Notes under the pieces: generated by a model
Told to the model about the DNA's origin: nothing
The model's input: the letters and a program-made list of their open reading frames with translations, nothing else
The model's database searches: none
Shown: positions 1 through 43,587 of the stretch, piece by piece
How the letters are laid out: each line of letters starts with the position of its first letter
Numbering within the stretch: the stretch's first letter is position 1
Virus record (IMG/VR): IMGVR_UViG_3300012942_000015
Coordinates: 1-43,587 of that record
DNA length: 43,587 nt
Strand: one strand, 5' to 3'
Source: a virus
Lineage: Duplodnaviria > Caudoviricetes
Translations under genes and position numbers: made by a program

Positions 1-123
1 GACTCGTGGACGCTCGTCTCGGAATGGGAGTCTGGCCGGTGTGCCTCCGTGATCGACGTCACTCGCGCCAGCACGCCGCTCCGGAAACCGGCAGGTTCTT
101 GGTTCGAGTCCAAGTGGGGGAGC
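1..123. repeat. Left copy of 123-bp terminal direct repeat (circular assembly overlap)
   Basis: Identical to 43465-43587; the repressor reading frame runs continuously across the join. Confidence 0.95.
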
Positions 124-401
124 TCCTTCGGCCCGGTCTTTTCGAAGACCGGGCCTTTTTCGTATCTGAGCCACTCGAGCCGCGCGCCCGTCGCATAGGC
201 GATCGCACTCAGGACGGTGTCCTTCGGTCGCTGATTGCCTGCCTCGTACTTCGCGAGCGTGCCGCGATCGGTTCCGATGATCCGCGCGAACTCTGTCTTG
301 TGCGTACCGAAGCCGACAATTTCGCGGACCTTCCGAATGCGATCGCCCACATGGAACGGCGACTCATCCCAGGGATTGTGGAGTGGCGTCACGTTGCTCA
401 T
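1..401 (-). CDS. Immunity repressor, Xre/cI-type HTH; 5' part (ATG at 401). Continues across the circular join to TAA at 43425; 146 aa in total
   Basis: Manual translation: MSNVTPLHNPWDESPFHVGDRIRKVREIVGFGTHKTEFARIIGTDRGTLAKYEAGNQRPKDTVLSAIAYATGARLEWLRYEKG... Typical HTH_3 pattern, divergent from a cro/xis-like gene, upstream of the integrase. Not in the ORF track. Confidence 0.9.
   Translation of the reverse strand, partial: MSNVTPLHNPWDESPFHVGDRIRKVREIVGFGTHKTEFARIIGTDRGTLAKYEAGNQRPKDTVLSAIAYATGARLEWLRYEKGPVFEKTGPKELPHLDSNQEPAGFRSGVLARVTSITEAHRPDSHSETSVHE
86..123 (+). other. attP common core: 3' half of a tRNA, probably tRNA-Asn(GTT)
   Basis: AACCGGCAGGTTCTTGGTTCGAGTCCAAGTGGGGGAGC reads as anticodon 3' stem CCGGC, variable loop, T arm CTTGG-TTCGAGT-CCAAG, acceptor strand TGGGGGA and discriminator G. 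No 5' half. Asn identity is recalled from actinobacterial tRNAs, not searched. Confidence 0.85.
130..160 (+). terminator. Intrinsic terminator just after the att core; would terminate the reconstituted tRNA in the prophage
   Basis: GGCCCGGTCTT-TTCG-AAGACCGGGCC perfect 11-bp stem followed by TTTTT. Confidence 0.85.
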
Positions 402-507: not shown

Positions 508-738
508 GTGACGAAAAACCCGCAAGTGCTGATTTCGACGCGAGAAGCTGCCGCGATCCTCAAGGAGGATCCTCGCAGCGTCCAGCGCAAAGCATCCGCA
601 GGCACGCTCCCATTCGTCCAGAAAATGCCTGGCGCGAAGGGTGCCTACATCTTCGACGAGGCCTCGATCCGCAAGTTCAAGGAAATCGCGGATAAGGAAT
701 CCGCCGCGCTCGCCGAGGACGATGGGGACGAGCAGTGA
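508..738 (+). CDS. Cro/Xis-like helix-turn-helix DNA-binding protein
   Basis: LISTREAAAILKEDPRSVQRKASAGTLP...GAYIFD is an HTH_17/MerR-like pattern; divergent from the repressor. Confidence 0.8.
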   Translation: MTKNPQVLISTREAAAILKEDPRSVQRKASAGTLPFVQKMPGAKGAYIFDEASIRKFKEIADKESAALAEDDGDEQ

Positions 739-2507: not shown

Positions 2508-3244
2508 TAGCGATGGCCGCGCGCACGGATCGTCCGATCATCCCGTTCCGGTGGGTGGGGCACCACGTCGACATCTGCGCTGTGCACACTGAGTTCGAGG
2601 TGCGGTTCATCGCCCGCGACATTCTCGACGCTGTCGGCCTCGACGTCGACGCGACGCTCGGCGCGCAACCATCGCATGAGGGCTTCCTCGAGGAGCACGC
2701 CGACGCGACCGCGTGGACGTTGGACGAGATCCGCACCGTGCTCGACCCGATCGCGTCGACGCCGCTCGCCCGCGAGCTGATGACATGGCTCGCTGCGCGT
2801 GCTGCAGAGGTCGACGCGATGCGGCACATGCAGCACGAAGCACCGCAGCGGCCGCCCGTGCTGCTGCCCACAGTGGATCCCGCCGCGGTCCCGGACACCG
2901 TGCCCGCCGTGGATGAGCCGCGCACCTGGTCGGTCGCGCAGACGGCGCGGATCCTGTCGCGGGACCCGTCGATCCAGATCGGGCAGCAAGGACTCTTCGA
3001 CTGGTTGCACGTGCACGCATGGATCGACAAGCGCGGCGAGGTGTGGATCCCGAACCGCGACGTCGTGTTCATCGGCTACCTCACCCGCCTGGACCGCAAG
3101 ATCCCCGGTCACCACGACCTCTACCCGCAGGTGCTGATCACGGAGCTCGGCATCCAGGCGCTGCACCAGCGCATGGGCGGCACCGCAGACCTCGACCTGA
3201 ACCGCCACCAGCTGATGCTCGTCGAAGACGGAGACACGCAATGA
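2504..3244 (+). CDS. Antirepressor (Bro-N-like N-terminus, ANT/KilAC C-terminus)
   Basis: FIARDILDAVG at the N-terminus; WSVAQTARILSRDPSIQIGQQGLFDWL...PQVLITELGIQAL is typical of KilAC. Start at 2504 or 2513. Confidence 0.8.
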   Translation: MIAMAARTDRPIIPFRWVGHHVDICAVHTEFEVRFIARDILDAVGLDVDATLGAQPSHEGFLEEHADATAWTLDEIRTVLDPIASTPLARELMTWLAARAAEVDAMRHMQHEAPQRPPVLLPTVDPAAVPDTVPAVDEPRTWSVAQTARILSRDPSIQIGQQGLFDWLHVHAWIDKRGEVWIPNRDVVFIGYLTRLDRKIPGHHDLYPQVLITELGIQALHQRMGGTADLDLNRHQLMLVEDGDTQ

Positions 3245-3523: not shown

Positions 3524-3805
3524 ATGACCTCACCAGCAGTCGCGCTGACCACGGAGTACGTCCTCACTCTCACCGCGGTCGCTGCGATCGGGGAAGTGCC
3601 TGACCGGGACATGCCGGAGGCGGATGCGATGGCACACATCGCCGCGCACACGCAGGACCAGAAGCTCGTCACGTTCACGATCCGCTCCAGCGACGTATTC
3701 GTTCTCGACGACCCTCTCCTGCACCTCGACTGCAAGCAAGTGCTGGACTGCTTCGCCGGCGCGGTCTCCCGCGCCACCGCGCTCGCGTCCACGGGCCAGC
3801 TCTGA
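3524..3805 (+). CDS. Hypothetical protein
   Basis: AGGAG RBS; GC-rich third positions; coupled to the next gene. Confidence 0.75.
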   Translation: MTSPAVALTTEYVLTLTAVAAIGEVPDRDMPEADAMAHIAAHTQDQKLVTFTIRSSDVFVLDDPLLHLDCKQVLDCFAGAVSRATALASTGQL

Positions 3806-4020
3806 TGCCGACCGTGGAGGTGACCGTCACGGTCTGGATCTGCAACCTGTGCGGCCGCACGGTGACCAGCAAGGGGCCGGCGCTGCTCGCCGCTCAGGAG
3901 TTCATCGACGTGCTCCGGTGGCTGCAGCTCGACGTCGACACGGTCTTCTGCGACCGGTGCCGGCACACGCGGGAGGTCGTCGACGCGCTCCTCCAACGGC
4001 AGAGGGCCGGCGCCGTATGA
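3805..4020 (+). CDS. Small putative Zn-binding protein
   Basis: CNLC and CDRC pairs; TGATG overlap. Confidence 0.7.
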   Translation: MPTVEVTVTVWICNLCGRTVTSKGPALLAAQEFIDVLRWLQLDVDTVFCDRCRHTREVVDALLQRQRAGAV

Positions 4021-13607: not shown

Positions 13608-13804
13608 GCAACCCCCGCACGCCCCGATACTTCCCGCACATGAGAGTCCGCGGCGCCCGACGACGTCGCTTCGCTCCCTTCCAACGGCTCGCAGGCTCCT
13701 TCGACCAGCTCGCAGGCGCCTTCGACCAGCTCGGCCGAGCCAGCGCCACCGCGACCGCCACCGGCCGCCATGCAAGCGCATCGCTCGTCCGGTGGGTCCG
13801 CTGA
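13604..13804 (+). CDS. Hypothetical protein with an internal 21-bp tandem repeat
   Basis: ATGA and TGATG overlaps; LAG(S/A)FDQ twice at 13687-13733. Confidence 0.5.
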   Translation: MSNPRTPRYFPHMRVRGARRRRFAPFQRLAGSFDQLAGAFDQLGRASATATATGRHASASLVRWVR

Positions 13805-14231
13805 TGGGCATCCTGAACTACACAACGAAGATCGCCGTCGACAAGACCACGGGGGAGTGCGTCGGCCTCCTGTCGCGCCGAGGCGTCCGCTCGATCTCGA
13901 CCCTCTACGACGACACAGGCAAACCCGAGGGGCTCGCGTTCACGATGAACACCGAATACGGGCCTCGCCACTTCGAACTCCCCGTCCGCGTGCAAGGCAC
14001 CCTCGACGCCATGAAACGCGACACCACCGTGCCCCGCACCTAGTCAACCCGGCACAAGCCGAACGCACAGCCTGGCGCATCGCCGCCGACTGGCTCAAAG
14101 CCCAAGCCGCGCTCATCGACGCCGGCCTCACCACCCAAGACGAAGTCATGCTCCCCTTCATGGTCGACAACGGAGGCCGCACCATCTACGAGGTCGTCAC
14201 CACCCAACTCCGGAAAGAACTCGAAGCATGA
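13804..14231 (+). pseudogene. Phage protein gene split by a 1-bp frameshift near 14035
   Basis: First frame MGILNYTTKI...VPRT stops at 14043; another frame continues HLVNPAQAERTAWRIAADWLKAQ...EVMLPFM with no start of its own and couples to the next gene. Confidence 0.7.
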
Positions 14232-15067: not shown

Positions 15068-15615
15068 GCACCGGAGCAGAACTGATCGCCGCTGAGCGCG
15101 ACCGGCAGATCACCAACGAGGGATACACCCCGGAAGACGACCGAGGGAAAGAGGTCCAACTCGTTCGAGCGGTGCAGTGCTATGTAGGCGTGTCGCTCAG
15201 AGACATTGCGGGCGCAACCAACCAGATCAATCAGGTGCCGATCATGTGGCCGTGGATGGACGAATTCTGGAAACCGACAGGCGATCCGATCCGCGACCTG
15301 ACGAAGTGGGGCAACCCGATCACGATGAGCGACGTCGGCGCCCAGTACCGATCGCTCGACGATCGCGGCGTCGCGACGCTCGTCGTCCGGGACTTCCGAG
15401 TGTTGGCGACGCGTGGCCGTCTCGCCTTCCCGAACTGGCGGTTCCTCGGCGGCCGACGCGGTGCGGTCGAGTGGACGTATCCCGGTCTCGACGAGATCCG
15501 TGCCGAGCTCGCCGGTCATGATCTCGCATGCTGGTGCCCACTGGACCAGCCGTGCCATGCGGACGTGCTGCTCGAACTCGCCAACGCACAGGTTGGGGAA
15601 GGGAACACACCATGA
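15064..15615 (+). CDS. Chimeric protein: phage protein N-terminus joined to a DUF4326-like C-terminus
   Basis: IAAERDRQI...WPW...WKP...RDLTK followed by KWGNP...LAGHDLACWCPLDQPCHADVLLELAN. Confidence 0.7.
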   Translation: MSTGAELIAAERDRQITNEGYTPEDDRGKEVQLVRAVQCYVGVSLRDIAGATNQINQVPIMWPWMDEFWKPTGDPIRDLTKWGNPITMSDVGAQYRSLDDRGVATLVVRDFRVLATRGRLAFPNWRFLGGRRGAVEWTYPGLDEIRAELAGHDLACWCPLDQPCHADVLLELANAQVGEGNTP

Positions 15616-15802: not shown

Positions 15803-15890
15803 CCCGATGAGGCGCGGCTCGACGCTCTCGGTTACGTCAAGTAGACGATCTATGCGAACGCTGCTGGCCGAGGTCGCGGAACGGCTGCGC
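15803..15890 (+). pseudogene. Decayed paralog of the gene at 41918-42241
   Basis: PDEARLDALGYVK*TIYAN then LLAEVAERL, versus PDEARLDALGYVEQTIYAN...LLQEVAERL. Confidence 0.85.
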
Positions 15891-40992: not shown

Positions 40993-41214
40993 ATGTGCGG
41001 GCGTTTCGCGATGAACGAAGAGGTCGACGAGCTCATCAAGGAGTACGTCGCCTCGGGCGGCGACTACCGGGACCGGCGGCCGTCATACTCGCTAGCGCCC
41101 ACGGATCCGGCACTGATCGTGCGGGAGCGCACCGACCAGGGCACGGGGGAGCTGCGCCGCACGGTCGACGAGGCGGCATGGACTCCGGTGGTCGGTGCCG
41201 TTCCTTGTATCTAG
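40993..41214 (+). pseudogene. Truncated SRAP (YedK/HMCES-like) gene
   Basis: MCGRF start and SYSLAPTD motif; stops at 73 aa; TACGCT 7 nt before the ATG. Confidence 0.8.
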
Positions 41215-41614: not shown

Positions 41615-41636
41615 GACTGAGAGCCGGTTCTCAGTC
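41615..41636. terminator. Hairpin closing the integrase/cassette operon
   Basis: GACTGAGA-N6-TCTCAGTC overlapping the stop codon at 41631. Confidence 0.45.
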
Positions 41637-41921
41637 CGAATCCCGCGTGTATCCGCGGATATCTTTCTTGATCGATGACCCTGAATTGTCCGATACAGGG
41701 CGGTGGTACATGCGCCACCCTGTTCCCTCTTCGCGGGCGAGGCACCACGAGCAGAGACGGATCCGCGCGAACGGTGGCGCGCCGAAGTCGCGGCATGCTT
41801 CGTCGCTGGGGAAGTACGTCACCACGAGCACGCGATCGCCAGGGTTGATCTGGCATGGGTGAGCGAATTCCGCCGAACACGTTCCTGCCTTGCGCGACTT
41901 CACGATCTTCGTGCTGCTCAT
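41631..41921 (-). CDS. Cassette gene 4, small Cys-containing protein
   Basis: MSSTKIVKSRKAGTC...INPGD...LCSWC; ATGA overlap and GGGAG RBS. Confidence 0.75.
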   Translation of the reverse strand: MSSTKIVKSRKAGTCSAEFAHPCQINPGDRVLVVTYFPSDEACRDFGAPPFARIRLCSWCLAREEGTGWRMYHRPVSDNSGSSIKKDIRGYTRDSD

Positions 41922-42241
41922 GGCTCGCTCCCTGAATTCGGCGATACCGGGACGAGCTCGAACCACGCGCCGCACTCGCATGCGTGCGCGTCGCCGTGGT
42001 CTTGCGGCGCGCAGCAGACGTGCGTGTGACCCACGTCGACGAGACTGTCGATCGTCGCGCCGCACTCGGGCGCGATGATCTCACCGTCGAGCATCAGCCG
42101 TTCGGCGACCTCTTGCAGCAGCTCGAGCACGTCGGCGTTGCTCCACGTGCTCGGCTCGGGGTTGTCCTCGTTCGCGTAGATCGTCTGCTCGACATATCCA
42201 AGCGCGTCGAGCCGTGCCTCGTCGGGTGTTGCGTTGCTCAT
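41918..42241 (-). CDS. Cassette gene 3, with Cys/His-rich C-terminus
   Basis: ATGA overlaps; CGA...HVC...H...HACECG; paralog remnant at 15803. Confidence 0.8.
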   Translation of the reverse strand: MSNATPDEARLDALGYVEQTIYANEDNPEPSTWSNADVLELLQEVAERLMLDGEIIAPECGATIDSLVDVGHTHVCCAPQDHGDAHACECGAWFELVPVSPNSGSEP

Positions 42242-42438
42242 TGCTCGCTCCCTGAATTCGATGATTCGTGGTCACGGAAGTCTCGACGCGCGGCGGCAGA
42301 CGCGACCTCGTAGGCGCCGACGTTGCCGTAGCGTGCACGCATCGCGTGGCCGGCGATCCAGCCGCACGAGCAGCGCGGCTGGTAGTAGACAGTGCGCCCG
42401 AATATTGTTGCCGTCGTGCGGTCCTCGTGCTCGCTCAT
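42238..42438 (-). CDS. Cassette gene 2, CSCGW-type small protein
   Basis: ATGA overlaps; YQPRCSCGW...H. Confidence 0.75.
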   Translation of the reverse strand: MSEHEDRTTATIFGRTVYYQPRCSCGWIAGHAMRARYGNVGAYEVASAAARRDFRDHESSNSGSEQ

Positions 42439-42569
42439 CGCTCCCTACCCGAATTCGATGATTCGTGGCACGAGCAGTTGCACGCGGCATCCCTGCAGCG
42501 CTCGTGCTCGTCGTACCCCTTGCGGGCGCCGACGCACTCGTCGGAGATCCACCATGTGTCGATGCTCAT
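42435..42569 (-). CDS. Cassette gene 1, 44-aa Cys-rich protein
   Basis: ATG overlaps the integrase stop; C...H..C....CNCSCH. Confidence 0.7.
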   Translation of the reverse strand: MSIDTWWISDECVGARKGYDEHERCRDAACNCSCHESSNSGRER

Positions 42570-43424: not shown

Positions 43425-43587
43425 TTAGAGCGCGACGGGAAGCGTCGTCACGACCGCGTTGTGGGACTCGTGGACGCTCGTCTCGGAATGGGAGTCTGGC
43501 CGGTGTGCCTCCGTGATCGACGTCACTCGCGCCAGCACGCCGCTCCGGAAACCGGCAGGTTCTTGGTTCGAGTCCAAGTGGGGGAGC
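43425..43587 (-). CDS. Repressor 3' part, including the 41-aa tail beyond attP
   Basis: ...EPAG-FRSGVLARVTSITEAHRPDSHSETSVHESHNAVVTTLPVAL* with TAA at 43427-43425. Confidence 0.85.
   Translation of the reverse strand, partial: LPHLDSNQEPAGFRSGVLARVTSITEAHRPDSHSETSVHESHNAVVTTLPVAL
43465..43587. repeat. Right copy of the 123-bp terminal direct repeat
   Basis: Identical to 1-123. Confidence 0.95.

Follow-up and report, generated by a model that had tools for sequence, protein, structure and literature searches.

Directly behind the tyrosine integrase gene of a temperate soil actinophage lie four small genes that end in variants of one short dyad, which raises the question of what the repeat does there and which enzyme might act on it. 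The DNA analyzed, hereafter the window, is the entire circular contig of this phage (43,587 nucleotides, with a 123-nt terminal repeat), and its gene content includes a terminase small subunit, a capsid, and a peptidase. An earlier note, made from the letters alone, had proposed a gene-capture or shuffling array served by the adjacent integrase. We find that the feature is real, that it is conserved at the DNA level, that it has taken part in one base-precise swap, and that the candidate enzyme class is one other than its neighbor. On the sequence comparisons below, the reading that we favor, with a probability of about one half, is that the sites mimic the attP cores of small tRNA-Lys prophages of Microbacteriaceae, elements of about 16-17 kb, and act as low-frequency swap points for Lys-type integrases working in trans.

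A pattern scan of the window recovered the four sites at the positions first described (Table 1), with the spacings of 251, 320, and 197 correctly given, and found no others even at two mismatches. None of 100 shuffled windows reached four matches (mean, 0.14), a significance that is overstated since the pattern was derived from the tested sites; the same motif does recur in other phages. The integrase gene and the four Cys-containing open reading frames are chained by ATGA overlaps, all four frames start with ATGAGC, and every site is read in one frame (HESSNSG, HESSNSG, PVSPNSG, and PVSDNSG), all as had been reported. The 7-6-7 layout of the supposed palindrome stands, and it is that of a simple tyrosine recombinase core, but its symmetry is imperfect, with 6, 5, 5, and 6 of the 7 arm pairs matching. 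The repeat unit measures 20 bp (36 bp including the RBS), and its four copies in 43.6 kb all fall within ORF 3' ends. At site A2, 30 bp of site plus RBS are identical in prophage L240. Site C lies 21 codons upstream of the gene 4 stop with no RBS after it, and the junction of int and gene 1, which is the upstream edge of the array, has no site.

Table 1. Features of the window that bear on the array and the immunity module
Feature	Position	Strand	Basis or remark
Repressor (HTH_3), 5' part	1..401	-	Domain match; reading frame
Cro-like HTH_17 gene	508..738	+	Divergent from repressor
Gene 4, 96 aa, Cys-rich	41631..41921	-	ATGA overlap; weak PHROG 30261 match, E = 7e-5
Site C, CCTGTAT-CGGACA-ATTCAGG	41680..41699	-	Last in array; spacer as in last L200 site
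Gene 3, 107 aa	41918..42241	-	98% identity open frame in L200
Site B, CCGGTAT-CGCCGA-ATTCAGG	41931..41950	-	Right end of L200-shared block
Block shared with L200 (genes 2 and 3), 534 bp	41931..42464	-	98.7% identical; both ends on sites
Gene 2, 66 aa	42238..42438	-	95% identical copy in small prophage L200; weak PHROG 4656 match, E = 0.0045
Site A2, CACGAAT-CATCGA-ATTCAGG	42251..42270	-	Spacer identical to that of A1
Gene 1, 44 aa, Cys-rich	42435..42569	-	Overlaps int stop (ATGA)
Site A1, CACGAAT-CATCGA-ATTCGGG	42448..42467	-	Left end of L200-shared block
Arm-less tyrosine integrase, 273 aa	42566..43387	-	Pfam Phage_integrase plus N-terminal SAM-like domain from residue 2
attP, 3' half of tRNA-Asn	43546..43587	+	Contig loose end; G405 attL/attR; terminal repeat

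Genes 1 and 4 failed the GC3 filter and were called from the overlaps, to which the weak PHROG match adds in the case of gene 4, while genes 2 and 3 are kept as open frames in prophage L200. Gene 1 has no match in Pfam, PHROG, or NCBIfam; protein searches returned only gene 4 itself for gene 4 and a single partial homolog for gene 3. A decayed start of gene 3, interrupted by stops, lies in the lytic small-gene region of the window (positions 15803-15880; 86% over 58 bp to L200), which suggests that the array genes come from a general small-gene pool. On the far side of the array is a truncated gene for an SOS response-associated peptidase (SRAP; 40993-41214, plus strand, 73 aa, profile positions 1-60 of 214), and a short convergent region separates the two.

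The repeat is conserved as DNA. A search of 1.32 Mb by peptide only yielded eight gene-terminal matches, whose arm-spelling codons were GAA in 8 of 8, NNT in 8 of 8, and TCR in 7 of 8, against a codon usage in the window of 27% for GAA, 5% for AAT, and 13% for GAT; arm-spelling rare codons were found in only one of four internal peptide matches. The rare codons at gene-terminal matches argue for a constraint on DNA, and a motif conserved at the peptide level was rejected on this ground. Across the 21 sites listed, the arms are conserved and the spacer is variable, with covariation between arm position 3 and the base opposite it (T-A in 10 and C-G in 4). Arms that adjoin an RBS at gene ends could instead pair in the mRNA and mask the following RBS until a ribosome arriving from the upstream gene melts the hairpin, and this translational coupling might account for some of the covariation and for folds that reach -9.3 kcal/mol at some sites. 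We consider it very improbable: 9 of the 21 sites have C-A as their innermost pair, the T-T at position 5 (4 of 21) is never compensated, the four window sites reach folding energies of just -0.7 to -3.8 kcal/mol, the pairing probabilities in context are 0.01 for site A2 and 0.11 for site B, and terminal sites have no downstream RBS. RNA pairing is thus not kept, and the 20-mers contain no stable hairpin or T-run. The same short length and weak folding uphold the earlier statement that these are not attC sites.

Evidence for exchange comes from the block that the window shares with L200, a small tRNA-Lys prophage in genome G333. At the left end, identity is continuous from spacer base 1 of site A1, where the two copies have GAA in common and differ at arm base 7 and in the outer arm; at the right end, identity stops directly after the right arm (ATTCAGG) of site B, an end that is ambiguous by a few bases because this arm is the consensus. 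The stops follow 9 and about 4 codons after the block ends, which are therefore not plain gene boundaries. L200 has other units in place of genes 1 and 4, and its gene 3 does not stop at the site but is extended in frame by a further Cys-rich module, which closes with another site and brings the protein to 153 aa. Gene content thus varies with breakpoints at the motif, as the earlier note had anticipated, and co-oriented units of variable content bounded by sites, an integron trait, are seen in this one case, the window against L200. Sequencing runs X2 to X4 all carry the L200 form with the same block ends, so we count a single swap event rather than separate cases. No site-to-site joint appeared in the contigs of run X1 or in those of the two runs that hold the L200 array at a depth of about 1500-2300, a search in which variant contigs of depth 5-20 were kept, two sites of the L200 array share a spacer, and contigs drop rare forms. 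When the L200 array was searched as DNA against 141 genomes, only short chance matches were returned. Organism A (runs X2 and X3) contains the L200 element and also has a tRNA-Asn core that is identical to the window attP. The L200 prophage block has a depth of 1500-2300, whereas a tRNA-Asn contig of X3 is at about 560; this hints that phage was free or replicating in the X2 and X3 cultures, although depth is no copy number.

We scored attachment sites with a site profile trained on 13 sites (range, 20-29 bits) and no att sequence. The att junction of L200, CCTGAAC-CCACTG-ATTCAGG, scored 23.2 bits, followed by the host tRNA-Lys (16.5), L352 and L354 (15.9), L353 (15.1), and L201 (12.8); the six best among the tRNA 3'-arm junctions listed are all tRNA-Lys. 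The remaining Lys-type junctions are weaker, with four at 3.8-7.8 bits and two below 0 (lowest, -5.4), and the tRNA-Thr att of L240 scored -14.7 despite the three sites of that element. None of the 83,162 20-mers of the window outside the array reached 15 bits. In three of seven prophages (G081, G063, and G329), attL and attR differ at the base just outside a 6-bp CAGTGG, which places strand exchange at the edge of the equivalent of the site spacer; the spacer thus lies in the strand exchange register, with one of its edges fixed by this comparison. Such an edge fits the 6-base overlap that the Brujita integrase reportedly uses. The spacers are not the att overlap itself, as CATCGA, CGCCGA, and CGGACA stand against CCACTG. 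Tyrosine recombinase overlaps span 6-8 bp, and mismatches within them are usually strongly deleterious, according to the available text of PMC10865867.

The resemblance extends to the codons. The repressor crosses att as NPEPTD/S, in the codon register that the small genes have at the sites (ESSNSG and EPTDSE), and the small-gene ends EPTDSESD in L317 and ESTGSESD in L040 correspond to the L352 attP tail, with spacers that differ from it by synonymous changes. Part of the match has a simpler cause, since the P arm ATTCAGA is one substitution away from the tRNA sequence ATTAAGA and this substitution removes the repressor stop.

The adjacent integrase belongs to a module of its own. Its catalytic residues (R132, K154, H209, R212, H235, and Y244) are intact in an alignment of 24 proteins, and its C terminus, -VAA, resembles a degradation tag, with an -AA end in nearly all of the 24 aligned relatives. 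It falls below the cut-off of the XerC/D and IntI profiles, and for IntI the scores are far from it (56.5 bits for TIGR02249, cut-off 265; 37.7 for NF011946, cut-off 435), in keeping with the earlier view that the enzyme lacks IntI features. The attP common core spans 43550-43587 and recurs at 86-123 through the 123-nt terminal repeat; the 5' half of tRNA-Asn appears as the loose end at 43550 in contigs, and attL and attR of a related prophage in G405 support the placement. The repressor frame continues from position 401 through the terminal repeat and attP into a phage-form tail that ends in LPVAL at 43425 (146 aa). Hence attP lies inside the repressor gene with the tRNA 3' half as its core, rep and int are co-oriented with cro divergent, and the integrase has no arm-binding domain. 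By their sequence, the -PVAL end of the repressor and the -VAA end of the integrase are putative degradation tags. This rep-attP-int-cro arrangement is the layout of integration-dependent immunity, and the integrase therefore already has an ordinary job. In the gap between rep and cro, positions 397-420 hold CATATGTCG and a nearby CGACA inverted pair, which we take to resemble the BPs operator and which is probably the true repressor operator.

That this tRNA-Asn integrase also captures or shuffles the units is improbable. It is intact and arm-less, its own attP has the 7-6-7 register (43546-43565) and codon frame of the sites with an inner GAAC/GTT in common, and one other locus, L060, likewise has a site downstream of int. 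Against this role, the window attP scores -4.3 bits on the profile on which tRNA-Lys cores score so well. The closest relative found, the G405 prophage (an integrase of 79% identity, the same att, and structural genes about 70% identical at the nucleotide level), has no array or site after int and has unrelated genes there. A site lies within 3.5 kb downstream in only 1 of 47 integrase loci at 31-54% identity (L060) and within 1.5 kb in 0 of a set of 14 loci, and the run X1 contigs, as noted, show no joint. The claim that the adjacent integrase serves the array is thus not supported, and the gene-capture reading as a whole is partly supported. The G405 prophage also has DNA homologous to a window ORF at 13792-14231 (plus strand) that starts MGILNYTTKI and is apparently split by a stop at about 14043.

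Arrays of the sites are present in several other elements. L200 has four sites; L201, a 17.4-kb element at tRNA-Lys in G381, has two; L003/L240, 16.7 kb at tRNA-Thr, has three; and two sites flank one ORF near head-tail genes in L226, a metagenome contig possibly drawn from the dataset that yielded the window. Two of the L240 sites (15511-15548) abut at a distance of 18 bp, differ in spacer, and enclose no gene; they form an empty unit. The window, L200, L240, and L201 all have their spacers in the order CATCGA, CG(C/G)CGA, CGG(A/G)CA. In small prophages the arrays sit between att and int, the last site often about 50-120 bp before int. Seven tRNA-Lys prophages held out of profile training, whose matches had already been met using an earlier profile, contain 4 matches of at least 12 bits in the 4,230 bp of their attP-int intervals, in three of the seven prophages, and none in the 202,172 bp outside them; the other four have no site of 12 bits. 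Prophages hold four of the five matches in G333 and both in G381, and three other genomes have none, so the sites are not a host-wide motif. G333, G381, and G405 belong to one genus (10 genomes), which is therefore probably the host group of these phages.

The association with att and int is not strict. Sites away from att occur in a lytic operon of L040, in L060 (3.2 kb after int), and in L226, and the integrases that sites adjoin, mostly on the upstream side of int, are just 31-35% identical to each other. In L060, a repressor related to that of the window (3527-3916) has a 3' end without a tRNA-derived att; behind it come an arm-less int and then small genes over about 3.3 kb. Neighboring small genes end in degenerate linkers with a left arm and spacer and no right arm, so a widespread gene-end linker may have the sites as one of its branches. 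Different genes also have the RBS/ATG leader in common, which indicates that junctions form outside the sites as well.

In viral contigs, the exact 17-mer had one match, in an unrelated 41% GC phage (L001), which we rejected as chance; site plus RBS gave 17 loci, of which only L003 was kept, and a repeat of that scan gave two, the L003 contig again (L238) and a chance-like match (L237). A metagenome scan returned 24 loci, from which the window itself (L221) was dropped and L226 kept, the others being single matches. A family scan found matches in 40 of 401 genomes, and among the 30 loci fetched only those in G333 and G381 had arrays. In Microbacterium, 128 of 301 genomes matched (150 places listed and 66 more), and only L317 among the 40 fetched is a phage gene end; most of these loose matches are therefore background, and the control with the reversed pattern was too lenient. 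Neither the array and its repeats nor genes 3 and 4 had a meaningful match in the annotated phage collection, and the genome-contig scan covered 5 of 64 parts. Three side findings emerged. In L005, a viral contig of 45% GC, a comparable RBS-bearing repeat (CTCCCTGAATTGTCAGATT) occurs twice, at 2347 and 657 bp away at 3004; it probably represents a distinct family of repeats from a different group of hosts. In L312 (G620:C1), two identical site-like matches 249 bp apart (2232 and 2481), with identical flanks and inside a long frame, look like a local duplication and not a phage array. Perfect palindromes TGAATC-N4-GATTCA, possibly sites of a host regulator, occur one to three times per genome in Microbacterium chromosomes (e.g., G629:C42:201936 and G639:C1:1013505).

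The agreement of both arms, of the spacer register, and of the codon frame with the Lys-type att core, together with the attP-int placement and the site-ended block, leads us to read the sites as att mimics. A site-to-site unit would comprise a right arm, the stop/RBS/start, the gene body, a left arm, and a spacer; taken from spacer to spacer, it would carry the last codons and stop of the previous gene along with its own RBS, start, and body. Because one frame is used at every site, an exchange would keep the operon coupled, and it would either give a gene a new stop or fuse a new C-terminal module to it, as gene 3 of L200 may illustrate. The array would have been imported into the large phage from a small-phage pool, its upstream edge joined at the overlap of the -AA stop and ATGAGC rather than at a site. 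A Lys-type integrase, predicted to bind and cut at the sites, would act on the large phage in trans during co-infection or from a small-phage lysogen. It is conceivable, if doubtful, that this amounts to a working integrase-driven cassette system, in which arm-less directionless integrases would also recombine attP-mimic sites at accessory-gene 3' ends. A frame-locked pool of units would then be traded between unrelated temperate phages of one host group, with slots set by spacer classes and C-terminal tails swapped as they are for the repressor. Against such active shuffling stand the single documented swap, the spacers unlike att, and the lack of joints in contigs at depth 1500-2300.

Two other explanations, which together are nearly as likely as the att-mimic reading, would leave the sites uncut. 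The sites could be bound only, as operators, roadblocks, or decoys that damp the level or activity of a Lys-type integrase in a directionless system, with spacers kept unlike att to avoid recombination and genes moving by homologous or microhomologous exchange. Confinement to the attP-int interval, a last site so close to int, conserved arms around variable spacers, and the missing joints would all suit this explanation, as would the description, in the available text of PMC3694055, of integrase level setting direction in such systems. It is unlikely nonetheless: operators need no position at gene 3' ends in one codon frame (a register in which the 8 peptide-selected matches and the 21 listed sites were themselves taken), it does not explain shared spacers in kept order or a breakpoint at spacer base 1, and the window sites lie downstream of an integrase with another specificity.

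The sites could also be relics, gene-end linkers whose ancestor was either an attP tail or a shared linker carrying an RBS, with no present recombinase and with shuffling by homology like that of PeSL or Cluster O repeats. The L317 and L040 gene ends that match the L352 attP tail, the degenerate linkers in neighboring genes, the gene 3 homolog P0123 that ends without a site, and the deletions between Cluster O repeats (reported in the accessible part of PMC4351075) favor it, and breakpoints on a repeat are also expected under homologous recombination. We regard it as unlikely because the rare codons kept at the arms and the covariation at arm position 3 imply present selection on the dyad. Moreover, 17-20 bp is short for homologous recombination. 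Three further candidates were rejected. A repressor operator is at odds with the rep-cro gap (402-507), which has no match of at least 8 bits; a host-wide regulator is at odds with the concentration of matches in prophages; and the host dif is at odds with dif-like sites that, in two of three genomes (G333 and G381, searched with a dif consensus), carry a TTATGTCA arm unlike the sites.

The published systems most like this locus, consulted in the parts of the literature available to us, each match it in some respects. Integration-dependent immunity is described for the arm-less tyrosine integrases of BPs, Brujita, and Charlie (Broussard and Hatfull 2013, PMC3694055), and the same layout appears in PMC7194413, an IntBrujita subgroup in PMC8138268, and such a module at tRNA-Lys in CyranoPS (bioRxiv 10.64898/2026.10.29.762952). 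The window shares with these modules attP within rep, loss of the C-terminal tail on integration, tag-like protein ends, and the missing arm domain. The phages described in the available text of PMC3694055 have one attP each, and this text mentions neither further cores of that type at accessory-gene ends nor gene exchange there; the window adds att-like cores at accessory-gene ends. Like an integron, the array has co-oriented single-gene units beside a tyrosine recombinase, with the stop tied to the site region; however, its sites are 20-bp dyads of the double-strand type and not long folded attC sites, the neighboring enzyme is unmatched to them, and the array is not an integron.

Short inverted repeats tied to small nonessential genes are also known from actinophages, namely, the 7-3-7 repeats of Cluster O mycobacteriophages, where some indels end on repeats (PMC4351075), the SAS and ESAS of Clusters K and EF, and the 18-bp inverted repeats of Cluster EG (PMC3203893 and PMC7302621, as far as their available text goes). 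Those repeats are mostly intergenic and ahead of start codons, numerous in each genome, and cluster specific, whereas the present sites, four copies inside ORFs, have a 6-bp spacer, lie in frame at gene 3' ends, span unrelated phage types, and match att cores. In T4-type phages, promoter-terminator units called PeSL shuffle small genes, and mini-circles have been shown (Arbiol et al. 2010, PMC2839356, available in part); the array likewise has conserved motifs at small-gene recombination points, yet the motif here is a dyad of att type, and the contigs showed no circle. The sites resemble dif and pdif in being dyads with a 6-bp spacer that flank gene modules, and differ in having arms of 7-8 bp rather than 11 and in lacking the dif-like arm of the host. 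Our literature search, in which subscription journals were thinly covered, found no description of att-like sites at accessory-gene ends. The array is a variant of repeat-mediated phage gene shuffling.

Phage mosaicism is usually ascribed to illegitimate or homology-driven recombination, and the ESAS, Cluster O, and EG repeats have no known binding protein, whereas the present repeat points to a named enzyme class with a known reaction. If the sites are only bound, they would represent a control layer missing from the model of integration-dependent immunity. If they are recombined, these phages would have an integron-like route for trading accessory genes across unrelated genomes and for giving proteins new tails.
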